Assembly: GCA_947627125.1 (NCBI GenBank) | Contig: CANQUY010000001.1 | Coordinates: forward strand, 1 to 34,259 | From: an uncultured Clostridia bacterium | GTDB lineage: Bacteria; Bacillota; Clostridia; Christensenellales; Borkfalkiaceae | DNA length: 34,259 bases | Direction: 5' to 3' | Shown here: positions 6,670 through 34,259 of the stretch, in pieces | Numbering within the stretch: the first letter of the stretch is position 1 | Layout: each line of letters starts with the position of its first letter | Made by a program: the position numbers and the translations under genes | The notes under the pieces: model-generated | Seen by the model: the letters and a program-made list of their open reading frames with translations, nothing else | Databases searched by the model: none | Told to the model about the DNA's origin: nothing

Positions 6670-7245
6670 TTATTTTTTGGTCTGTAATTTGATCGCTTTG
6701 CCGCCGGTCAGGAGGATCATTTTCACCGCGTCGACGGAAAACTCGGGCAGTTTTACGGTCAGAGGCTTATTGAGAATGCCGCGCGCGAGTACCTTGACGT
6801 GATTCACCGAATTTCCGATGAGTTTCTTTTCCTTCAGCGATTCCAGCGTGACCGTTTCATTTGCCTCGTAGTTCTCCGAAAGCGTATCAATATTGACGAT
6901 CCCCTTCGGCTTTGACAGAACCGCTTCCTCCGCTTCTTTCACCTCTTCTATGAGGGCGACAGCGACCTCATCTGAGATCAAACTCTGTACTTCCGCCGCG
7001 GAAACCTGCTCGCGTGTTTCAAATTCTGCCGAAACCGAACGGTCTTCCTCCTTCATCTCGCAGGGAGGCTCTGCAGGCTCCTCTTTCGGTTCCGCCGCCT
7101 CCGATATTTCATGCGGCATATCGGTCTTTCGCATACGCGTCAGAAACAGATGCGCCCCTGAAAGAGTACAGATCAATATCAATGCGGCAGTGCATAGATA
7201 CTGTGCCCCAAACTCAGAAAAACTGAGCAATAATGCACTCATCAT
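6670..7245 (-). CDS. Membrane-anchored protein with a C-terminal uL15 (ribosomal protein L15)-like domain
   Basis: 191 aa. An N-terminal TM (YLCTAALILICTLSGAHLFL) is followed by RMRK, then an acidic linker. The C-terminus (IVNIDTLSENYEANETVTLESLKEKKLIGNSVNHVKVLARGILNKPLTVKLPEFSVDAVKMILLTGGKAIKL) aligns by eye with the uL15 C-terminal domain (VVNLDKL..GTEVTPELL...[33 protein letters not shown]). The ATG lies 6 nt after the stop of the giant gene, whose last codons contain AGGAG. Confidence 0.7.
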   Translation of the reverse strand: MMSALLLSFSEFGAQYLCTAALILICTLSGAHLFLTRMRKTDMPHEISEAAEPKEEPAEPPCEMKEEDRSVSAEFETREQVSAAEVQSLISDEVAVALIEEVKEAEEAVLSKPKGIVNIDTLSENYEANETVTLESLKEKKLIGNSVNHVKVLARGILNKPLTVKLPEFSVDAVKMILLTGGKAIKLQTKK

Positions 7246-7251
7246 ATGTCC

Positions 7252-10200
7252 TTACTCCTGCGAATTCTTTTTCTTGACTGCTTTCACGACCAGAGTAACG
7301 ATCAATCCCGCCGCAACGGCGCCGAGGGCGATATTGACGATCATATAGGTCAGAGCGATCTGCTCGCTCTCTTCTTTCAACGCATCATGTTTCCCTTCTA
7401 CCTGTCTTATGCCCGCCCAAAGGGCCTCATCCGCCGCCTTGTAGGCCGAATCAAGTGCGGAAATGCTCTCCGCGAGTGCGCTGTCCTGTGCCTTCAGACC
7501 CGCGATCCCGCTGTCGATGAGTGCGTCCGCCGCCTTGTAAGCGGAATCCAACGCCGAAACCTTTGCCTCGATATCCGTCCCGTTGGCCTTGAGGGCCGCC
7601 TGAAGTTCCGCCACCGCGTTGTCGAGATTGGTCTGGACCTTATCGATCGCCTTCTGCAGAGCGGAATCCGCCGCGTTCGTTGCCTTCTCGAGAGCGGCGA
7701 TCTTGGCCTCCAAATCCTCGTCCGCCGCCGTCATATCCGAGCGGAGAAGGGTGTCCGCCGCCTTGTAGGCCGAATCCAACTTTTGGACTTTTTTCTCGAT
7801 ATCCGTTTCGTTGGCGTCGATCGCCGCCTGAAGATCCTCTACCGCATTGTCGAGATTGGTTTGGACCTTATCGATCGCCTTTTGCAGGGCAGAATCGGCG
7901 TCGTTCATTGCCTGTTCGAGGGCCTCGTCCGCCGCAGCCATGTCAGAGCGGAGAAGGGTGTCCGCCGCCTGATAGGCCGAATCCAACTTTTGGACTTTAT
8001 CCTCGATATCCTTCTCGTTAGCGTCGATCGCCGCCTGAAGGTCCTCTACCGCCCTGTCGAGATTGGTTTGAACCTTATCGATCGCCTTTTGCAAAGCCGC
8101 ATCGGCGTCGTTCATTGCAGTTCCGAGCGCGGCGACGCTGTCCTCGATCGCCTTGTCTGCCGCAGCCATGTCGGAGCGGAGGACCGTATCCGCCGTTTGA
8201 TAGGCCGCATCCAACGCCGAAACTTTATCCTCGATATCCGTTTCGTTGGCCGCGATCGCCGCCTGAAGGGCCGCAACTGCGCTGTCGAGGTTGTCTTGGA
8301 CCTGCCCGATCGCAACTTGCAGGGCATGGTCGGCCGCCTTGTACGAATAGTCGAGCACCGCAAGATTTTTGGCGAATGTGTTATCCCGCTCCTGCAGGTC
8401 GGCAATGTCGCTGTGGATGATCGCGTCCGCCGCCTTGTAGGCATCGCTCATTGCCGAAAGTTCATCCTCGATCTCCGTCCTGTTTTGTCTGAGCGACGAC
8501 TGAAGATCCGCCACCGCGTCGTTGAGATTTTGTTGAACCTTGTCGATCGCGTCCTGCAACTTGTCATTGACATCGTTCATTGCAGAAGTAAGGTCGCTGA
8601 TCGCATCGTCGATCCGCTTGCCGAGCGCAGTGTCGGCGTCATTCATGTCCGAGCGGAGGGCCGCGTCCGCCTGTTGATAGGCAACGCCCATAGCCGCGAG
8701 TTTATCCTCGATATCCTGCTTGTTGTCATTGATGGTCTGTTGAAGGGCCGCCGCCGCACTGTTGAGATTTTGTTGAACCTGATCGATCGCGTCCCGAAGA
8801 TCGTTTTCGGTCTTGTTCATGGCAGAAGTAAGGTCGTTGACCGCCTGTTCGATCTCGTCGCCGAGCTGCCTGTCGGCAGTATTCATATCCGAGCGAAGGG
8901 TCGCGTCCGCGTCTTTGTAGGCAGCGTCCATTGCCGAAACTTTATCCTCGATATCCTTCTCGTTGGCGTCGATCGCCGCGCGAAGGGCCGCCGCCGCATC
9001 GTTGAGGTTTTGTTGAACCTGTTCGATCGCGGCTTGCAATCTCTGATCGGTCGCATCCAGCGTGTCCGTAAGGTCGGAAATGCTCTGCGCAAGCTCGCTG
9101 TCCCTGTTCTGCAATGCCGTGATTTGATTATTGATGATACGGTCTGCCGCCTCGTAAGCCTCTTGCAACTCTGCGAGCGCTTTGTCGAGCTCCCCTCTGT
9201 TGTCGGAAATCGACTTCTCGAGGTCCGCAACTGCCTGTTTGAGATCGGCCTGAAGTTGCTTGATTGCAGCGTCCAAATTCTCATCCACCGCTTTCAGCCT
9301 GGTTTCAAGGGCGTCTATGTTGCTCTGAAGGCCTGTGTCTGCCGCTGCGAAATCTGCACGGAGAGCCGTATCCGCAGCCAAATAATCTGCCTCCAACTGC
9401 GTCAGTGCTTTTTGGAGGTCTGCAATACTCGCCTCATCCCGACTGATCGCTTCCCGAAGGTTTTTGATATCATCTGAGAGGCGGTCATCAAGTGCATCAA
9501 TTGTTTCACCCAATGTCTTTTTAGCCGCATCCAGTTGCGATTGAAGCCCATTGATCATGCCCACCAATTCAGCTTTGAGGCCCTCGTCTGCATCCAATAA
9601 TGCCTGTTTGAGAACTTTGTCCGCCTCTATGTAGGCTTCATTCAGATCTGTAAGTCGTGACGATAATTCCCTCTGATTGCCATCTATCGACGCTTGCAAC
9701 GCCTGTGTCGCACCTTCAAGTTGTGCCTGTACCTCATCCACCGACTTTTCAAGCGTTTCGGGCGTGGGGATCCAGTAGGCATGGAGCGTGAGATCCTGCG
9801 CGGGATTGGTCCAAGGGTCCGAACTGATGGGGAGCATGTTCGCGCCGAAGATCGGATCCCCCTGTCCTTCCTCTTCCGTGAAGTAGCCGCCGAAGGTATA
9901 GCCCTTACGCACGGGAGCCATCACGCCGCTCGTCGGAAGCGCATCTCCGTACTCCACCGAAAGACTTGCACTCCCGCCGCCCGCTTCTTCGCCTGCGGAG
10001 AAACGGATGAGCGTTTTCATCTTTTCCCAGCGTGCATAGAGTTCGATCTCCCCTCCGTTCTCGGCCGTGAGATTCAGAACGCTGTCGCCGTCTTTGAATA
10101 CGACCTCTCCGCCATCCGAAGTCGCCCAGCCGATAAAGTTGTAACCCGTCTTTGTAAACCCATTGATCGCAAGAGCCTCGGGCGTTCCGTAGGAATAGGA

Positions 10201-13200: not shown

Positions 13201-13518
13201 AACGCTTGTGTTGCCGTCTGAACTTACTTTCCAACCCTGAGAAGCAATTGTGCCATCCTTAAGTGTGGGGATGAGATTGGGTGTTTGTTGTGAACCCGTC
13301 CATTCGCCGTCGGTATTCGTTCCGTTTGAGTCGCGACTCGCATACACCGTATCCACCGTTTTATTCGGCATACTAAACAAAACGCCCGTCAATAAACTTA
13401 CGAGCGCAAGGACTATGAGGAAAAGTGAAACTTTTTTCTTTTTTGTTGTCACAAAGGGACCCCCTTCCTTCTCTTTCGGAGTGATTTCCGTTATTTTTTT
13501 ACAATTCGATTGTATCAT
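7252..13518 (-). CDS. Giant (2088 aa) tail-anchored cell-surface protein with an N-terminal globular region, nine Listeria-Bacteroides repeats, a long coiled-coil stalk and a C-terminal TM
   Basis: N-terminal signal/TM is VSLFLIVLALVSLLTGVLF. Nine repeats of the type GY-x-F-x-GW/Y...LYA-x-W are encoded at roughly 9760-12100. About 800 aa of A/D/L/Q-rich heptad repeats are encoded at roughly 7370-9760. The C-terminal TM is MIVNIALGAVAAGLIVTLVV, followed by KAVKKKNSQE. Confidence 0.9.
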   Translation of the reverse strand: MIQSNCKKITEITPKEKEGGPFVTTKKKKVSLFLIVLALVSLLTGVLFSMPNKTVDTVYASRDSNGTNTDGEWTGSQQTPNLIPTLKDGTIASQGWKVSSDGNTSVEANTVYEKNIGKYVIKSNGDWKDLGGSNCTGGVYYTLTLSEADKVKANAGQLKISASSLNWTQSASTHDISVRVEFYNSQNSRIGEEHEYYQKYHTGDRTQFGVYLSEKSVPNQTCSIQVWFSNYGSLASRPYIADPSCYLYDRTAPSVSGISLDKSLVVDSNKGIAVAGNTVKYSVEFNEKISSITNKGTATITLDGSTFATSNNAELITESGKSKVCYTFTLPDVNQNGEIKFSNVSGLSVKDEAGNTTTVNGGSYSSAPTLQYYRKMGVSSSLTHLTFSGGGKATYNTNYTATLSAAHGYNLPNSITVKVGGGTLAVNNDFTYNSRTGAITIYGSKITDDIVITAAGVPKQSGVTFYKESGTGGTESTTATFDAAMPAIETPTRTGYTFQGYFTQSGGAGIKYYDAAGKSAKNCDFDSAISLYAHWTANHYTIKFNQNKPANASSNVQGSTPDTPRVYDDGEIALPKNGFTLTGWTFQGWATSSVGAVVYENEKAVQNLTSDPNGTYTLYAVWQANSYTITLDAMGGTNASSFSATFDSKIPGITVPERYGYKFLGYFDRGTGGVQYYGTDGQAYGGKTLTVVGGITLYAHWEAITYTIRLYNEGVFVADLEGITFGELTLPKEETYGLSRKNFDFVGWNLYDEQNWAMYYADTFYAVGLAGTQDEVVVLYAAWLEKPIHALFYDANGGSGAPAAEQLHEGEGTTIQAGPERDDYTFAGWGFLANSDVVSYRPDDPFTMGTEGVTLYAVWKHNPSLTYSANGGEFHNTIAAVYPAAGTEVTITKAEPVREGYQFLGWAVTATDAETVYHAEEAFSMPDGDTVLYAVWEIGEYNVSTEVAEGYTVNGLTGSYPFGTEVSFTVTGTKPRVYINGERAEEQGGQYTFTVKGDTTIFVADGTKLSLVYSANGGEDAPTDKTTYSAGSNANISPEKPERTGYTFQGWAEDKDAAEATYSPEDPIEFGADQEEDTVLYAVWEANTYTVSYHDTTGADGSMDCSSYSYGTPEALAINGFTKTGYNFIGWATSDGGEVVFKDGDSVLNLTAENGGEIELYARWEKMKTLIRFSAGEEAGGGSASLSVEYGDALPTSGVMAPVRKGYTFGGYFTEEEGQGDPIFGANMLPISSDPWTNPAQDLTLHAYWIPTPETLEKSVDEVQAQLEGATQALQASIDGNQRELSSRLTDLNEAYIEADKVLKQALLDADEGLKAELVGMINGLQSQLDAAKKTLGETIDALDDRLSDDIKNLREAISRDEASIADLQKALTQLEADYLAADTALRADFAAADTGLQSNIDALETRLKAVDENLDAAIKQLQADLKQAVADLEKSISDNRGELDKALAELQEAYEAADRIINNQITALQNRDSELAQSISDLTDTLDATDQRLQAAIEQVQQNLNDAAAALRAAIDANEKDIEDKVSAMDAAYKDADATLRSDMNTADRQLGDEIEQAVNDLTSAMNKTENDLRDAIDQVQQNLNSAAAALQQTINDNKQDIEDKLAAMGVAYQQADAALRSDMNDADTALGKRIDDAISDLTSAMNDVNDKLQDAIDKVQQNLNDAVADLQSSLRQNRTEIEDELSAMSDAYKAADAIIHSDIADLQERDNTFAKNLAVLDYSYKAADHALQVAIGQVQDNLDSAVAALQAAIAANETDIEDKVSALDAAYQTADTVLRSDMAAADKAIEDSVAALGTAMNDADAALQKAIDKVQTNLDRAVEDLQAAIDANEKDIEDKVQKLDSAYQAADTLLRSDMAAADEALEQAMNDADSALQKAIDKVQTNLDNAVEDLQAAIDANETDIEKKVQKLDSAYKAADTLLRSDMTAADEDLEAKIAALEKATNAADSALQKAIDKVQTNLDNAVAELQAALKANGTDIEAKVSALDSAYKAADALIDSGIAGLKAQDSALAESISALDSAYKAADEALWAGIRQVEGKHDALKEESEQIALTYMIVNIALGAVAAGLIVTLVVKAVKKKNSQE
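7370..9760 (-). repeat. In-frame tandem coding repeats (about 205-230 nt period, about 11 units) encoding the coiled-coil stalk
   Basis: The peptide unit ALQKAIDKVQTNLDxAVEDLQAAIDANExDIExKVQKLDSAYxAADTLLRSDMxAAD recurs. Near-identical DNA blocks occur, for example GTCGAGATTGGT(C/T)TGGACCTTATCGATCGCCTT at 7620, 7849 and 8056. Confidence 0.85.
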
Positions 13519-13609
13519 ATTTTCATTTCCCTGAAAAGCCCAAATCGCCCCAAAATCTCAGTCTTAACAATTCTTCACACTTTCCCCCGCCCCTTTTCCC
13601 CTCCCCCTC

Positions 13610-13638
13610 TTGCATGATTCTTCTTTATTTGTTATAAT
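13610..13638 (+). promoter_or_regulatory. Near-consensus extended -10 promoter pointing into repeat array 1 and the GIY-YIG gene
   Basis: TTGCAT (13610-13615), exactly 17 nt of spacer, then TGt-TATAAT (13630-13638). The first repeat fragment begins about 17 nt downstream. Confidence 0.55.
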
Positions 13639-13654
13639 TACTCTGGCGGGGTGT

Positions 13655-14216
13655 GGCGGCGTCATTCAACGCGGGGGACGCAGCGGCGTCATGCTGAGAA
13701 CACGGGCTGTACGCAGTCTACGGCGGTTGGGGCGGCGTCATGCTGAGAACGTGAGCTGTACGCAGTCTACGGAATCTAACCCGAAGCATCTCGCCGCACA
13801 CTCCCGTTTACTTCCCCCGCGAGATTCTTCGGTTCAAGTCCTCGGACTTCGTTCCTATTCCGTTTCTCAGAATGACGCGGGGGCGCGCGGCGGCGTCATT
13901 CAACGCGGGCGGCGTCATGCTGAGAACGTGAGCTGTACGCAGTCTACGGAATCTAACCCGAAGCATCTCGCCGCACACTTTACGGACTTCCCCCGCGAGA
14001 TTCTTCGGTTCAAGTCCTCGGACTTCGTTCCTATTCCGTTTCTCAGAATGACGCGGGGGGCGCGGCGGCGTCATGCTGAGAACGTGAGCTGTACGCAGTC
14101 TACGGAAACTAACCCGAAGCATCTCGCCGCATAGTCCCGTTTACTTCCCCCGCGAGATTCTTCGGTTCAAGTCGTCAGACTTCGTTCCTATTCCGTTTCT
14201 CAGAATGACGCGGGGG
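13655..14216. repeat. Hairpin-repeat array 1, in the order A+ B- A+ B- A+ B- plus truncated A fragments. This is the only array with this polarity.
   Basis: A units lie at 13732-13797, 13909-13974 and 14065-14130 (GCGGCGTCATGCTGAGAA...CCGAAGCATCTCGCCGC). B units in reverse orientation lie at 13814-13883, 13990-14060 and 14147-14216 (CCCCGCGAGATTCTTCGG...TTCTCAGAATGACGCGGGG). Truncated A copies lie at 13655-13727 and 13889-13908. Confidence 0.92.
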
Positions 14217-14253
14217 ACATCTCTCCGCAAAAAAACACTCCAAAAATAAGCCA

Positions 14254-14544
14254 ATGAAGAATTTTTACACATATATCATCACAAATTCAAAACACAGGCC
14301 ATTTTACGTCGGGGTGACAAACGATATCGCAAGACGAATGTATGAGCATAAGCATGAACTCTACGATGGATTCAGCAAACGCTATCATTTGCATCTCCTC
14401 ATGTATGTGGAACATCACGACAACGAACGTGCGGCAATCGAGCGCGAAAAGGCATTAAAGGGCAAGACGAGGGACAAAAAAATCGCTTTGATCGAGAGTA
14501 TCAACCCAAAGTGGGAAGATCTTTCTCCCGAAGAATCGTTTTGA
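14254..14544 (+). CDS. GIY-YIG nuclease superfamily protein (COG2827/UPF0213-type, YhbQ/YazA-like)
   Basis: 96 aa. The sequence FYTYIITNSKHRPFYVGVTNDIARRMYEHK...RYHLHLLMYVEHHDNERAAIEREKALKGKTRDKKIALI follows the canonical small GIY-YIG pattern. Confidence 0.9.
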   Translation: MKNFYTYIITNSKHRPFYVGVTNDIARRMYEHKHELYDGFSKRYHLHLLMYVEHHDNERAAIEREKALKGKTRDKKIALIESINPKWEDLSPEESF

Positions 14545-14566
14545 CAAGGTCGGCCCCCCGTGAGTG

Positions 14567-14864
14567 CCCCCGCGTCATTCTGAGAACGCGAGAAAGAACG
14601 CAGTCCGACGAATTAACCCGAAGAATCTCGCGGGGCGTATCGAATACCATGCGGCGAGATGCTTCGGTACGGCTCTCATTAACTTCGTTCCCACTCCCCT
14701 TCTCAGCATGACGCCGCAACAGCCCCCGTTGACTTCGTTCCCACTCCCCTTCTCAGCATGACGCCGCAACCCCCGCGTCATTCTGAGAACATGAGAAAGA
14801 ACGCAGTCCGATGAACTAACCCGAAGAATCTCGCGGGAACAAACACCATGCGGCATGACGCCGC
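14567..14864. repeat. Hairpin-repeat array 2, in the order B+ A- (partial A-) B+ (collapsed A)
   Basis: B+ units lie at 14567-14635 and 14770-14837. An A- unit lies at 14651-14717. An A- copy lacking its 5' arm lies at 14718-14767, and a collapsed arm pair GCGGCATGACGCCGC lies at 14850-14864. Confidence 0.9.
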
Positions 14865-14890
14865 ACCAACAACTATAAAGAGAAACGACT

Positions 14891-15571
14891 ATGAATTACA
14901 CCGTTTGTGAAAGAAAACTTCTATTCATCGAGGATGATGAAAACTTATTGAGGGAAATGGTTGAATACTTTTCCCACGATAATTCCGTGTTTACGGCATG
15001 CGACGTGGATGAGGCCGTCGGGGTTCTGACCGAAATAGGCAACTTCGACGCAGTCATCTTGGACCTCATCCTCAAAAACAGCATGGGGCTGGAGCTCTTC
15101 GGCGCATTCCCCGAGCTCCCGCCCGTCATCATTCTGTCCTCTTTGGACGGCGAGGACACCATTCTCTCGGGCCTCACCTCGGGGGCGGCAGATTATGTGG
15201 TGAAGCCCTGTTCCATGCGGCTTTTAGAAACGCATATCGCCATGCGCCTCCTGCCCAAGGCGGACGCGGTGGTCACCTTTGGGGCTTTTTCGGTGGACGC
15301 CAACAAGCGCACCGTAAAATACAAAGGCATGGCCATTTCGCTGACGCCGTCCGAGTTCAATATCCTCTTCTTTTTGGTGAAAAACTGCGGAGAGTATTTC
15401 ACCGCAGATGAGATATATGAAAAGATCTGGTGTGCGCCGAGCCTGCGAACGACGACGGTGCGGGCGCATCTCTCGTCCCTCCGCCGAAAGCTGAAAGCGG
15501 CCATGCCCTCGTGCGACGTCATCCGCACGGAATTCAGCAGGGGCTACTGTTTTACGGGAGAAGTGTTATGA
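14891..15571 (+). CDS. OmpR-family response regulator (receiver plus winged-helix DNA-binding domain)
   Basis: Receiver motifs are LLFIEDDENL, DAVILDLIL and VVKP. The C-terminal winged helix reads LTPSEFNILFFLVKNCGEYFTADEIYEKIW...VRAHLSSLRRKL...RGYCF. Confidence 0.9.
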   Translation: MNYTVCERKLLFIEDDENLLREMVEYFSHDNSVFTACDVDEAVGVLTEIGNFDAVILDLILKNSMGLELFGAFPELPPVIILSSLDGEDTILSGLTSGAADYVVKPCSMRLLETHIAMRLLPKADAVVTFGAFSVDANKRTVKYKGMAISLTPSEFNILFFLVKNCGEYFTADEIYEKIWCAPSLRTTTVRAHLSSLRRKLKAAMPSCDVIRTEFSRGYCFTGEVL

Positions 15572-17580: not shown

Positions 17581-17617
17581 CGCTTTTGCTCTGATTGGCC
17601 CCTGACGGAAAACAGCT

Positions 17618-18309
17618 CCCGCGTCATTCTGAGAACGCGAGAAAGAACGCAGTCCGACGAATTAACCCGAAGAATCTCGCGGGGGACATAACAATGCGGC
17701 CCCGCGTCATTCTGAGAACGTGAGCAGGACAAGAAAACGGGACTTAACCCGAAGAATCTCGCGGGGGCATAACAGTGCGGCGAGATGCTTCGGTACAGCC
17801 CCCGTTGACTTTGTTGCACTCCCCTTCTCAGCATGACGCCGCTATGGGCTTCCGTACTCAGTGCGGCCCCGCGTCATTCTGAGAACACGAGAAAGAACGT
17901 AGTCCGATGACCTAACCCGAAGAATCTCGCGGGGCTTGTACGGACACTTTGCGGCGAGATGCTTCGGTTCAGCTCCCGTTAACTACGTTTCCACTCCCCT
18001 TCTCAGCATGACGCCGCTATGCGACCCGTACTCAGTGCGGCCCCGCATCATTCTGAGAACGTGAGAAAGAACGCAGTCCGACGACCTAACCCGAAGAATC
18101 TCGCGGGGGGCATAACAGTGCGGCGAGATGCTTCGGTACAGCCCCCGTTGACTTCGTTTATGCTCCCCTTCTCAGCATGACGCCGCTATGGGCTTCCGTA
18201 CTCAGCGCGGCGAGATGCTTCGGTTCAGCCCTCGTTGACTGCGTTCCCACTCCCCTTCTCAGCATGATGCCGCTATGCGACCCGTACTCAGTGCGGCGAG
18301 ATGCTTCGG
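17618..18309. repeat. Hairpin-repeat array 3, in the order B+ B+ A- B+ A- B+ A- A- (partial A-), with a roughly 174-nt composite period
   Basis: B+ units lie at 17618-17685, 17701-17767, 17867-17934 and 18041-18110. A- units lie at 17777-17842, 17951-18017, 18120-18186 and 18207-18273. A lone A- 5' arm lies at 18293-18309. The linkers are conserved (CATAACAGT and TATGGGCTTCCGTACTCAGT). Confidence 0.92.
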
Positions 18310-18319
18310 AACGGCAGGG

Positions 18320-19042: not shown

Positions 19043-19142
19043 GAAAATGCGGCTGGACGGGAGTCGTGGGGGGCCCCTGTCCTCATTCCGAGCCCCGCAA
19101 GGGGCGAGAGAATCCCGCTTTAAGAACGGAAGTCCGTCGGTC

Positions 19143-19487
19143 TATGGGATCCGCTCGCTTCGCTCGGGATGAGGGCTGTAGGGCGTCATGGTGAGCAGCC
19201 CCGCGTCATTCTGAGAACACGAGAAAGAACGAAGTCCGATGACCTAACCCGAAGAATCTCGCGGGGCGTATCGGATACTATGCGGCGAGATGCTTCGGTA
19301 CAGCCCCCGTTAACTGCGTTTATACTCCCCTTCTCAGCATGACGCCGCTATGGGCTTCCGTACTCAGTGCGGCGAGATGAGTTCAGCCCCCGTGGACTTC
19401 GTTCATGCTCCCGTTCTCAGCATGACGCCGCTAGGAGCCGCCGTGCGTTTTATGGGATCCTTCGCTGCGCTCAGGATGAGCGCGGGG
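19143..19487. repeat. Repeat array 4, in the order C+ (degenerate arm) B+ A- A- C+
   Basis: Type-C units (TATGGGATCC-n-TCGCT-n-CGCTC-r-GGATGAG) lie at 19143-19176 and 19451-19487. A B+ unit lies at 19199-19266. A- units lie at 19282-19348 and 19369-19431; the latter has a 5-nt deletion in its 5' arm. Confidence 0.88.
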
Positions 19488-19576
19488 AGCAGGATGAGAG
19501 CGGGAGGCAGGATGAGAGGGAGGCAGGATGAGAGGGAGGCAGGATGAGAGGGAGGCAGGATGAGCGCGCGGGGAGG
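19472..19576 (+). repeat. 16-18-nt microsatellite (CAGGATGAGAGGGAGG-like, six copies) growing out of the 3' end of a type-C repeat
   Basis: CAGGATGAG starts at 19472, 19490, 19508, 19524, 19540 and 19556. Confidence 0.9.
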
Positions 19577-19610
19577 ACAAGGGCTTTTCTCATGAAAAAG
19601 GCATAGAGAA

Positions 19611-28610: not shown

Positions 28611-29111
28611 CCGCCCGCTCCGCCCTCATCCCGAACGAAGCGGCCCCGCGTCATTCTGAGAAACGGACGTTGAACGAAGTCCGACGAACTAACCCGAAGA
28701 ATCTCGCGGGGGGCGTATCAGACACTTTGCGGCGAGATACTTCGGTTCAGCTCCCGTTGACTTCGTTTATGCTCCCCTTCTCAGCATGACGCCGCCACCC
28801 AGCCCCGCGTCATTCTGAGAAACGGACGTTGAACGAAGTCCGACGAACTAACCCGAAGAATCTCGCGGGGGCGTGTACGGACACTTTGCGGCGAGATGCT
28901 TCGGTTCAGCTCCCGTTGACTTCGTTTATGCTCCCCTTCTCAGCATGACGCCGCCACCCAGCCCCGCGTCATTCTGAGAAACGGACGTTGAACGAAGTCC
29001 GACAAACTAACCCGAAGAATCTCGCGGGGCGGGTACGGACACTTTGCGGCGAGATGCTTCGGTTCAGCTCCTGTTGACTTTGTTATACTACCCTTCTCAG
29101 CATGACGCCGC
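28611..29111. repeat. Repeat array 5, in the order C- then (B+ A-) x3 as three nearly perfect 159-nt tandem units
   Basis: A C- unit lies at 28611-28643. B+ units lie at 28644-28713, 28803-28871 and 28962-29029. A- units lie at 28729-28795, 28888-28954 and 29046-29111. The conserved linkers are CG(T/G)GTACGGACACTTT and CACCCAG. Confidence 0.93.
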
Positions 29112-29194
29112 CCGACCCTCGCCCCATCCGCTCTGAATGCGTCGTTTTCACAGAAATCTCAGCGTTGTAACAGGAATTTGTGACGGCGAAAACG

Positions 29195-31829: not shown

Positions 31830-32053
31830 CCCCGCGTCATTCTGAGAAATAGAGTGAGATGAGAGAACGGGAACTAACCCGAAGAATCTCGCGGTGGCAT
31901 ATACGGACGACTGTGCGGCGAGATGAGTACAGCCCTCGCAGACTGCGTTGTACTCCCCTTCTCAGCATGACGCCACGCAAACAGGCTTCCGTGCGTTTTA
32001 TGGGATCCTTCGCTACGCTCAGGATGAGCGCGGGGGCAGGATGAGCGCGGGGG
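31830..32053. repeat. Repeat array 6, in the order B+ A- C+ plus a duplicated C tail
   Basis: A B+ unit lies at 31830-31894 (3' arm degenerate). An A- unit lies at 31915-31974. A C+ unit lies at 31999-32036, followed by a second CAGGATGAGCGCGGGGG at 32037-32053. Confidence 0.88.
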
Positions 32054-32083
32054 CGAATCAATCAAATACGAAAGGAGCAAACT

Positions 32084-33213: not shown

Positions 33214-33930
33214 TTATTTGGAGCGGGTGCGGATGACCTTGCCGCCCGTGAGAAGGATCATCTTGACGGCCTCGATGGAGTAGTCGTCCGCCTCGACGGT
33301 GAGTTTCTTATCGAGGGTGCCGCGGGCCAAAACCTTGATATATGTGACCTTTTTGTAGCCTTGAATGCGCTTTTTGATCTCATCGAGGGTGACCGTTTCG
33401 CCGTCGTTGAAGTACTGCTCGAGAATGTCAACATTGATGATGCCCGTCTTGGTCCTATCGGCAATGCGTGTGGATTCCTCCACCATCGTCGCCGCGATCT
33501 CGTCCTCGAGGATCTTATCGACCTCCGCCGCCTTGACGCTCTGCCGCGTTTCGATATGGATATCTTCCTTCTTGGGCTTGGGTTTGGGCGCGGGAACGAC
33601 TACGGGCTTCGGTTCGGGCTTGGGCTGAGGCTTGGGTTCAGGCTTCGGCTGAGGTTTCGGCTGAGGTTTGGGCTCGGGTTTCGGCTGAGGCTTGGGTTCG
33701 GGCTTGGGCTGAGGCTTGGGTTCGGGTTTCGGCTGAGGCTTGGGTTCAGGCTTCGGCTGAGGAGCAGGCTTCGCTGCGGGGGCGGGTTGTTGGGCTCCCT
33801 TTTTATTGCGCAGGGCAAGATAGAGCAACACGCCCGCCGTGACGATCAAGAGGCCTGTCACCACGCAAATCGCGATCGTCCCGCCGGGGACAAGACCCGC
33901 CAATATGCCAAAAACAAAGCTGTTTGCCAT
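33214..33930 (-). CDS. Second membrane-anchored uL15-like domain protein, with a PKPEPKPQ repeat linker
   Basis: 238 aa. An N-terminal hydrophobic segment (FVFGILAGLVPGGTIAICVVTGLLIVTAGVLLYLAL) is followed by RNKK, then about 100 aa of P/K/E/Q repeats. The C-terminus (IINVDILEQYFNDGETVTLDEIKKRIQGYKKVTYIKVLARGTLDKKLTVEADDYSIEAVKMILLTGGKVI) is paralogous to the 6670-7245 product. Confidence 0.7.
   Translation of the reverse strand: MANSFVFGILAGLVPGGTIAICVVTGLLIVTAGVLLYLALRNKKGAQQPAPAAKPAPQPKPEPKPQPKPEPKPQPKPEPKPQPKPEPKPQPKPQPKPEPKPQPKPEPKPVVVPAPKPKPKKEDIHIETRQSVKAAEVDKILEDEIAATMVEESTRIADRTKTGIINVDILEQYFNDGETVTLDEIKKRIQGYKKVTYIKVLARGTLDKKLTVEADDYSIEAVKMILLTGGKVIRTRSK
33571..33790 (-). repeat. 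In-frame 24-nt tandem repeat encoding (PKPEPKPQ)n
   Basis: GGCTGAGGCTTGGGTTC(A/G)GGCTT(C/G)-type units are reiterated about 8 times on the plus strand. Confidence 0.85.
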
Positions 33931-34096
33931 AATTTTTCCTCCTCAAAGAGTTCTTCTTCGGCTCCATTACAGGGCTATTTCAGTTTCATTTATTTTACCA
34001 CAAAATAGCGCGCGTTGTCAATCGTTTTTTAAAAATTCTTGAGGATGATAGAAATTGGTCTTTCCCCCGCCCCCAAAGCGGAACAGAGTGACGCAG

Positions 34097-34247
34097 CCCC
34101 GCGTCATTCTGAGAAACGGAGAAGGACGAGAGAACGGGGGCTGACCCGAAGAATCTCGCGGGGCGTATGCGGTTTTCTTCGCGGCGAGATGCTTCGGTAG
34201 AGCCCTCGCAGACTTCGTTCATGCTCTCGTTCTCAGCATGACGCCGC
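34097..34247. repeat. Repeat array 7, in the order B+ A- (the array may continue beyond the window end)
   Basis: A B+ unit lies at 34097-34163 and an A- unit at 34181-34247. Confidence 0.88.
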
Positions 34248-34259
34248 CACCCACGGAAA

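Follow-up and report, generated by a model that had tools for sequence, protein, structure and literature searches.

A predicted Ssn-family GIY-YIG nuclease gene between arrays of CGTC-tagged hairpins in an uncultured gut Clostridia lineage

The 34,259-base stretch of DNA analysed here, referred to as the window, has a G+C content of 53%. Its closest relatives are metagenome-assembled genomes (MAGs) of uncultured Clostridia from rabbit gut. The segment 13610-14864 contains a small gene, ssn, between two arrays of hairpin repeats. The open reading frame (ORF) at 14254-14544 on the plus strand encodes 96 aa and matches the Pfam family GIY-YIG (PF01541, E 2.5e-14) over residues 4-76, with no second domain. 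An initial annotation of this DNA regarded it as the only ORF between the arrays. The ORF list and the Pfam search bear this out: It is the sole credible gene in 13610-14864. The remaining ORFs of this segment (13610-14134, plus strand, 174 aa; 13808-14122, minus strand, 104 aa; 14575-14856, minus strand, 93 aa) sit inside the repeats and are repeat artefacts. Such spurious long ORFs are an annotation problem; gene callers may list them as hypothetical proteins. The central features are given below, with scores from the covariance model of the hairpin unit.

14254-14544, plus strand: ssn, predicted gene for a single-domain GIY-YIG nuclease of the Ssn family, with predicted catalytic residues Y7, Y18 and E65 (Pfam, BLASTP and profile comparison)
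14146-14219, minus strand: A hairpin directly upstream of ssn; the 5' end with the CGTC tag points toward the gene start, 35 nt off (81.9 bits)
14564-14637, plus strand: A hairpin directly downstream of ssn; the 5' tag end points toward the stop codon, 20 nt off (85.4 bits)
13640-14219, both strands: array 1, inverted polarity; remnants at 13645-13680, the 5' half of a B unit at 13685-13726, then three doublets
13727-14219, both strands: doublets of array 1, namely B 13727-13800 (plus), A 13813-13886 (minus), B 13904-13977 (plus), A 13989-14062 (minus), B 14060-14133 (plus) and A 14146-14219 (minus), 74-86 bits each
14564-14864, both strands: array 2, standard polarity; A 14564-14637 (plus), B 14648-14722 (minus), truncated B 14723-14772 (minus), A 14767-14840 (plus), B remnant 14848-14864

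The window contains seven such arrays, which sum to 2.6 kb (7.6% of its length) and all lie outside supported genes. In each of them, A and B units strictly alternate in orientation. Arrays 2-7 carry A on the plus strand and B on the minus strand; array 1 alone is inverted. The covariance scan confirms two earlier claims, namely that array 1 is the only one of the seven with inverted polarity and that its unit order mirrors that of array 2: The two orders are reverse complements of each other. The wider claim of an inverted-repeat structure of about 1.2 kb holds for the unit order only. The arms differ in length (580 vs 301 nt), are 82-84% complementary over stretches of 69-76 nt and are not each other's closest relatives. 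GC skew of the window gave no usable replication-strand signal to which array polarity could be related.

The repeat unit is about 74 nt long. When 23 units were aligned in one orientation, (C)GTCAT, CTGAGAA, CCGAAG and ATCTCGC proved invariant or nearly so. CGTCAT ... ATC is present in 21 of the 23 units and CATCAT in two. The conserved pattern at the hairpin base is GCGTCAT-N-CTGAGAA ... CCGAAG-N'-ATCTCGC, with 53-55 nt between GTC and ATC. At the base of the consensus fold, an outer stem of 6 bp reads CCCGCG/CGCGGG in A and GCGGCG/CGCCGC in B. Above it, an internal loop (TC/CT) leads to a stem of 5 bp, ATNCT/AGN'AT, in which N:N' stands for T:A in A units and for G:C in B units. A tandem G-A mismatch and a closing G-C pair follow, and the poorly conserved loop on top comprises about 35 nt. 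Pairs 14-64 (A-U) and 15-63 (U-A) are invariant. Three base pairs switch fully between the subtypes, with 11-12 sequences per side. These switches represent compensatory changes, which may stem from a single A/B split. B is the reverse complement of A's sister subtype, and the architecture is identical. This means, A and B are two subtypes of one element on opposite strands and not separate repeats. Both are real: A covariance model built from the 23 units detects 30 units in the window at E<1e-8, all inside the seven arrays, and scores a unit with about 85 bits on the correct strand vs about 11 on the wrong strand. A generic scan for CGTC-tagged hairpins (tag, AT-stem, C) yielded 31 hits in the window vs 1.8 in shuffled sequence.

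Both hairpins next to ssn (14146-14219, minus strand; 14564-14637, plus strand) combine a 5' GTC tag with a palindrome and a following C. This combination is known from SsnA of Neisseria meningitidis (NMV_0044/NMB0047). Chenal et al. (2025; PMC11893778) characterised this protein, which has 94 aa and a single GIY-YIG domain and belongs to the cd10448 group. SsnA binds the NTS repeat CGTCATTCCCGCGMAVGCGGGAATCYRG exclusively as single-stranded DNA (ssDNA) and cuts it a few nucleotides upstream. Cutting depends most on the 3 nt 5' of the palindrome and binding on the C directly behind it. SsnA is inactive on double-stranded DNA (dsDNA) and does not bind RNA. It cleaves even when the hairpin is supplied as two half-oligonucleotides. 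Three further Ssn homologues cut their own hairpins, and in the survey of the same authors SRM hairpins flank 71% of Ssn homologues across bacteria. Most homologues described are from Gram-negative bacteria. In Neisseria, SsnA restricts the integration of repeat-bearing transforming DNA (PMC11893778). A literature search for follow-up work on Ssn after Chenal et al. found none.

The homology of the window protein to SsnA is clear. In a tblastn search against a plasmid collection (7.3-Gb database) it finds N. gonorrhoeae NZ_CP119140.1 with E 3e-14, below the E<1e-10 that Chenal et al. used as their criterion. The gonococcal locus has a 94-aa ORF with Y6, Y17 and E64, the residues that Chenal et al. 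mutated in SsnA, and 16 NTS copies surround this ORF in both orientations. Pairwise BLASTP of the window protein with this SsnA orthologue gives 39% identity over 85 aa without a gap (E 1e-23), and Y7, Y18 and E65 are in register with the catalytic Y6, Y17 and E64. In hhalign, a profile of 28 homologues, mostly 92-106 aa long, matches the orthologue with a probability of 99.9%. The three residues are conserved to at least 90% among the 28. A search with the single protein returned no specific NCBIfam family and no PDB entry at E<=0.01. With the family profile, just two PDB structures were found, 1zg2 and 1ywl (E 6.5e-8 and 6.8e-6), both UPF0213. Small GIY-YIG proteins of the UPF0213/YhbQ type and SLX1 have the GIY-YIG core and a similar size. 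The UPF0213/YhbQ-type proteins, however, are a distinct subfamily, and we know of no cognate hairpin repeat for them.

A side remark concerns the gonococcal record. NZ_CP119140.1 is filed as a plasmid in PLSDB, but with 2.17 Mb it is evidently a chromosome. At 600-2190 of the extracted locus, the stems of the NTS copies around ssnA are of two covarying subtypes, one with CCCGCG/CGCGGG and one with CCCACG/CGTGGG. The CCCACG type has six copies, all on the minus strand, a parallel to the A/B heterodimers of the window.

On sequence grounds, the locus is very probably an Ssn/SRM system that would consist of a 96-aa Ssn nuclease and the A/B units as its cognate sites. As in Neisseria, a single-domain GIY-YIG protein of 94-96 aa with Tyr, Tyr and Glu in register is encoded between hairpins in which an AT...AT palindrome is preceded by a CGTC tag on the 5' side and followed by a C. 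Further copies of these hairpins are scattered over intergenic clusters in either orientation, two compensated stem subtypes surround the gene, and the nearest tag ends point toward it in both systems. In contrast to the described systems, the host is from a rabbit-gut lineage of uncultured Clostridia. The stem has the sequence TCTGAG/CGAAGA with the tandem G-A mismatch instead of CCCGCG/CGCGGG, the loop comprises about 35 nt instead of 3 nt, and an additional outer stem of 6 bp includes the CG of the tag in its pairing.

These differences have consequences. The published SRM search pattern, HGTCWYN(0-2)YYVSBRHN(0-5)WNVSBRGN(0-2)RNCYNB, misses the window units: It has no match in the window or in the loci L015 to L019 of close relatives, nine in the Neisseria locus and three in a Rickettsiales locus. 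It fails on the window units because of their TGAG/CGAA stem and their long loop. Several other points likewise weigh against the assignment. The loop is far longer than the 3-5 nt of the described forms. The CG of the tag is base-paired, and the segment 5' of the tag, where SsnA cuts, is conserved in the window units but variable in Neisseria. For an isolated A-B doublet, folding prediction favours a single long REPIN-like hairpin (-30.6 and -35.1 kcal/mol) over two unit hairpins (about -25 kcal/mol in total), and such a long hairpin would bury the recognition structure. Finally, a role in natural transformation is established in Neisseria alone. On the other hand, the SRM pattern is a search heuristic derived from 29 genomes (PMC11893778) and not a mechanistic definition. 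As SsnA cleaves split oligonucleotides, a long loop should be tolerated. In addition, the subtype-specific changes compensate within units only; between units they create mismatches. We infer that the A/B pattern is compatible with selection that preserves the unit hairpin and disfavours perfect long palindromes.

A second published group of repeats is equally relevant. Di Nocera et al. (2013) described a superfamily of REPs tagged with CGTC whose stems start with A-T and T-A and which form dimers, often heterodimers (PMC3733652). They lack a dedicated transposase and were never found beside transposase genes. The families described there come from five phyla; Firmicutes/Clostridia are not among them (PMC3733652). 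The window units share the CGTC at one end, the A-T/T-A first pairs, the short tail after the stem, the intergenic position and the arrangement in opposite-orientation heterodimers, likewise with no associated transposase. They differ from the described elements, which have stems of 8-9 bp, loops of 4-5 nt and a total length of 20-40 bp (PMC3733652), by their loop and by the stacking of dimers into arrays of up to nine units. Judged by these features, the locus represents a further Ssn/CGTC-REP example, in an unusual long-loop, outer-stem, heterodimer-array form and in a Gram-positive gut lineage.

The initial annotation considered the pairing of a GIY-YIG nuclease with hairpin repeats as new and compared it with RAYT/REP systems. 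The pairing itself is substantiated by the homology to SsnA and by the surroundings of the homologues described below. The novelty does not hold: Both the pairing and the comparison are found in Chenal et al., who liken 'NTS-ssnA-NTS' to IS200/IS605, RAYT, REP and BIME (PMC11893778). The resemblance to RAYT/REP/BIME systems (REPtrons, REPINs) comprises a nuclease gene of single-copy type between inverted copies of a hairpin that is recognised on ssDNA, here presumed by analogy. It further comprises the intergenic spread of hairpins in the form of inverted doublets and mosaic arrays, two alternating subtypes comparable to the Y and Z REPs of E. coli, and doublets that can fold into one long REPIN-like hairpin. 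However, a hydrolytic GIY-YIG enzyme replaces an HUH/Y1 enzyme with its covalent 5'-phosphotyrosine and strand transfer, and the tag is CGTC instead of GTAG. This means, the resemblance is one of layout and ssDNA-hairpin logic, not of family membership. The NIMEs of Neisseria (dRS3/NTS) are similar, too: They are intergenic arrays near surface-protein genes in which alternating tagged hairpins bracket short variable segments, and the ssnA gene itself sits in such an array. In NIMEs, hairpins of 20-28 nt are separated by RS segments of 50-150 nt, whereas in the window the variable segment is inside the loop and the units nearly abut.

The closest homologues of the window protein (73-79% identity) are encoded in five rabbit-gut Clostridia MAGs. 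In three of them, L015 (8807-9097), L016 (268-555) and L018 (10001-10291), gyrB and gyrA flank the gene; its context is a different one in L017, in L019 and in the window. At the gyrB-gyrA loci, type and number of hairpins vary by species, with flanking genes that are 85-95% identical. CGTC/AT hairpins adjoin the gene in all five relatives and range from the canonical 25-nt form (GTCATCCTGAGCGCAGCGAAGGATC) to long-loop forms of 54-60 nt. With the covariance model of the window they reach 15-40 bits only: The exact unit of the window is lineage-specific. A scan of JGI metagenomes for the long unit found no true copy (one locus had tandem short-type hairpins without ssn), so that the long unit was untraced beyond the window lineage. 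Between close relatives, homology at the DNA level does not extend past the start and stop codons of the gene, and a conserved cassette beyond the ORF was sought among them and not found. Compared with its relatives, ssn has dN values of 0.04-0.2 at saturated dS. This combination amounts to strong purifying selection, which suits a long-maintained, host-compatible gene rather than a decaying selfish one.

The association with hairpins extends beyond these relatives. The analysis of 22 homologue loci, which represent many phyla, gave a density of 2.53 CGTC/AT hairpins per kb within 500 bp of the gene vs 0.19 per kb elsewhere, a 13-fold enrichment. At least one hairpin is present within 500 bp at 15 of the 22 loci, none at seven. 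These data support a cognate pair of nuclease and hairpins that recurs across phyla. By contrast, the mirror image of the two arrays, which had been considered the defining feature, is not a conserved property: In L015, L016 and L017 the hairpins are mostly on the gene strand on both sides. Nearest hairpins with their tag ends turned toward the gene occur in the window, in N. gonorrhoeae and at one Saccharibacteria locus, but not at most other loci.

Repeats also touch the ends of the coding sequences. The last codons of ssn (SPEESF, CCCGAAGAATCG; 14521-14532) resemble the 3' arm of the A unit, and this C-terminus is kept in close relatives. In L017 (10270-10300), the stop codon of the homologue is part of a CGTCATTCTGAG hairpin, in its 5' arm. 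The C-terminus of some distant homologues is extended into repeat sequence (…PRNDK, …SSQRSSE).

The remaining arrays and a promoter-like site upstream of array 1 are as follows.

17613-18310, both strands: array 3, standard polarity; 9 units between a histidine kinase gene and the tag (3-methyladenine glycosylase) gene
19195-19436, both strands: array 4, standard polarity; A, B and a degenerate B
28640-29116, both strands: array 5, standard polarity; three A-B doublets with a period of 159 nt and 95% identity
31826-31981, both strands: array 6, standard polarity; one A (69.7 bits) and a degenerate B (40.7 bits)
34093-34252, both strands: array 7, standard polarity; a single A-B doublet at the window edge
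13610-13638, plus strand: promoter-like site read from the sequence; TTGCAT, 17-nt spacer, TATAAT after TG (extended -10)

A second family of hairpins, which are short, adjoins arrays 4 and 6 at 19134-19180, 19441-19577 and 31989-32054; its sequence on the minus strand is CTCATCCTGAGCGCAGCGAAGGATCC. It is the canonical 25-nt form with a CTCAT tag in place of GTCAT. The CTCATCCTGAGCGCAGCGAAGGATCC hairpin is followed by tandem repeats of 16-17 nt (CAGGATGAGAGGGAGG, 5.6 copies), which re-duplicate its 5' arm.

Comparison of the units indicates how the arrays have grown. Unit identity is 0.89-0.91 within arrays vs 0.79 between arrays. Arrays 1 and 5 consist of A-B doublets duplicated in tandem almost perfectly, in array 1 with a period of 157-176 nt and 92-95% identity. 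Array 1 units are closest to each other, and array 2 units are closest to those of arrays 3 and 4; arrays 2, 3 and 4 share nearest neighbours at 93-96% identity. The higher identity within arrays and the shared neighbours argue for growth mainly by local duplication, plus some exchange or dispersal between arrays. Several truncated units directly precede a complete unit that begins at the 5' outer-stem edge. Neither target-site duplications nor a common insertion target were seen at the array edges. The initial annotation proposed to look for presence/absence polymorphisms of the arrays between strains; a length difference between samples is observed at array 2. In four independent assemblies from other rabbit samples, all of which encode a protein identical to that of the window, this array is about 330 nt longer and contains a full B unit in place of the remnant at 14848-14864. 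In the remnant, the inner hairpin has been lost between 2-nt microhomologies. The length difference is likely a real polymorphism because the four assemblies agree, although short metagenome contigs can misassemble repeats.

From the published work on the family, a mode of action can be proposed for the window protein. It would be a small monomeric enzyme that binds the folded hairpin on ssDNA only. Recognition would involve the stem together with its two neighbours, the GTC tag immediately 5' and the C immediately 3', and the nick would be placed a few nucleotides upstream of the tag. ssDNA-specific binding and Mg-dependent, strand-specific cleavage are expected by analogy with the Ssn family. 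As candidate sites, the A and B hairpins would be recognised at their base, on the strand bearing the CGTC tag, and the loop of about 35 nt would be free to vary. With A on one strand, B on the other and both stacked into BIME/NIME-like arrays, each array would offer sites on both strands. Where replication, uptake or transfer exposes ssDNA, a nick would be set directly 5' of a unit. By analogy with published Ssn work, such nicking could modulate recombination around genes flanked by arrays.

A more far-reaching model, that of the initial annotation and also raised by Chenal et al. (PMC11893778), is that array 1-ssn-array 2 forms an autonomous selfish element similar to an IS or a REPtron that mobilises A/B units or doublets. 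Nicks at unit edges might, for example, cause units to be copied in through repair, template switching or gene conversion. The model does not conflict with an Ssn/SRM system, to which it adds causal spread; we consider it unlikely. It would suit the model that ssn is located between two inverted A units whose tag-bearing ends face it, the same position as in N. gonorrhoeae, and that close homologues are present in at least three genomic contexts. Some units have their nearest kin in other arrays, array length varies between samples, and truncated units abut a complete unit at its 5' outer-stem edge, near the cleavage zone expected by analogy. Moreover, CGTC REPs were noted to lack a dedicated transposase (PMC3733652). 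However, homology between close relatives stops at the ORF boundaries, and the hairpins on either side differ in type and orientation. The two flanking arrays are not a matched pair, and their edges show neither target-site duplication nor a common target. Unit similarity mostly fits local tandem duplication, deletions fit microhomology slippage, and the gene is under strong purifying selection. GIY-YIG enzymes hydrolyse DNA; to our knowledge, neither a covalent intermediate nor a strand-transfer activity is known for them. A conventional insertion sequence or MITE pair was also considered and rejected: The arms are 82-84% complementary with closer unit kin elsewhere, homology ends at the ORF, and neither duplications nor a common target were seen at the array edges.

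In a related and rather doubtful proposal, likewise raised in print before, Ssn would be the missing propagating enzyme of CGTC-tagged REPs, and its nicks at the 5' edge would seed the copy-in of units or doublets by repair or template switching. The sample-to-sample array differences, the nearest units in other arrays and the junctions of truncated and complete units are compatible with it. If it is true, nick-driven copy-in would build and reshuffle arrays, and heterodimers with long loops and outer stems would be the form that keeps units cleavable and avoids perfect long palindromes.

Alternatively, the arrays might act mainly as RNA, with hairpins in 3' untranslated regions or leaders that stabilise, terminate or insulate transcripts, and the nuclease might be incidental. 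This is improbable. All arrays are intergenic, and in three gaps between co-directional plus-strand genes (arrays 2, 3 and 6) A is on the sense strand. Many REPs are considered to be transcribed (Di Nocera et al., 2013; PMC3733652). Compensatory pairs suit RNA folding equally well. The promoter-like site at 13610-13638, if real, would transcribe array 1 into ssn and make the array an ssn leader. Its -35 hexamer fits at just three of six positions, for which reason the promoter scan does not list it; the promoter/terminator scan of 13300-15000 found nothing beyond shuffled expectation. No unit is followed by a T-run, and the sole terminator-like match in the arrays is the deleted B remnant. The window has no Rfam match at gathering thresholds and none in tRNA/tmRNA scans, and z-scores for single-unit folding are modest. 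Since both orientations occur in every array, the transcript sense is not unique. Conservation is highest in the unpaired tag and tail nucleotides which SsnA, a protein that binds no RNA, reads on ssDNA. Additional roles of the arrays at the RNA level may exist, but the Rfam and promoter/terminator scans gave no specific support for them.

Spread of the hairpins by an enzyme encoded elsewhere (a RAYT, an IS200/IS605 TnpA or another transposase) or by host recombination, with the GIY-YIG gene as a bystander, is very improbable. The visible genome amounts to 34 kb, the arrays flank many unrelated genes of the window, and seven of the 22 homologue loci lack a hairpin within 500 bp. These observations are outweighed by the 13-fold enrichment at homologues of distant phyla and the 71% of flanked genes in the survey of Chenal et al., who found that four Ssn homologues cut their own flanking hairpins (PMC11893778). 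In addition, the tags are CGTC and not the GTAG of RAYTs, and CGTC repeats were never found beside transposase genes (PMC3733652). That ssn encodes a free-standing GIY-YIG homing endonuclease which cuts dsDNA at the repeats as homing sites has next to no probability: Its weak NCBIfam likeness to group I intron endonucleases (residues 7-39, E 2.3e-4) reflects the shared GIY-YIG motif only, TIGR01453 scores 21.3 bits vs a cut-off of 56, the 96 aa include no DNA-binding domain, intron or intein context is lacking, and SsnA is inactive on dsDNA (PMC11893778). An I-TevI-type homing endonuclease was likewise rejected on domain architecture, with linker and C-terminal DNA-binding domain missing.

Some further features of the window were recorded. 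Two minus-strand ORFs, 6670-7245 (191 aa) and 33214-33930 (238 aa), have a C-terminal ribosomal L15 domain (PF00828) after a long N-terminal extension and are located outside a ribosomal operon context. The second contains a 12-nt tandem repeat in about 13 copies at 33569-33788. The segment 7252-13518 (minus strand) encodes a predicted surface protein of 2,088 aa with eight Listeria-Bacteroides repeat domains and a coiled-coil-like region, which derives from internal tandem repeats of 207-240 nt with 60-90% identity (7505-9124). Between about 4000 and 7000, G+C drops to 38-45% vs 53% overall; this segment, in which small ORFs and a trypsin-like protease with a Listeria-Bacteroides repeat are encoded, is possibly a separate acquisition.

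The general discovery that small GIY-YIG ssDNA nucleases are paired with tagged hairpins has already been published. The locus extends this pairing to an uncultured Gram-positive gut lineage, and in very dense form: 30 units occupy 7.6% of 34 kb. It shows that the base of the hairpin is the conserved part and that the loop can grow tenfold. As the published motif misses such long-loop variants, the reported share of repeat-flanked Ssn genes is probably an underestimate. With two subtypes that differ in three compensated pairs and, as far as seen, one nuclease gene, the lineage provides a natural test pair for the specificity of Ssn nucleases.

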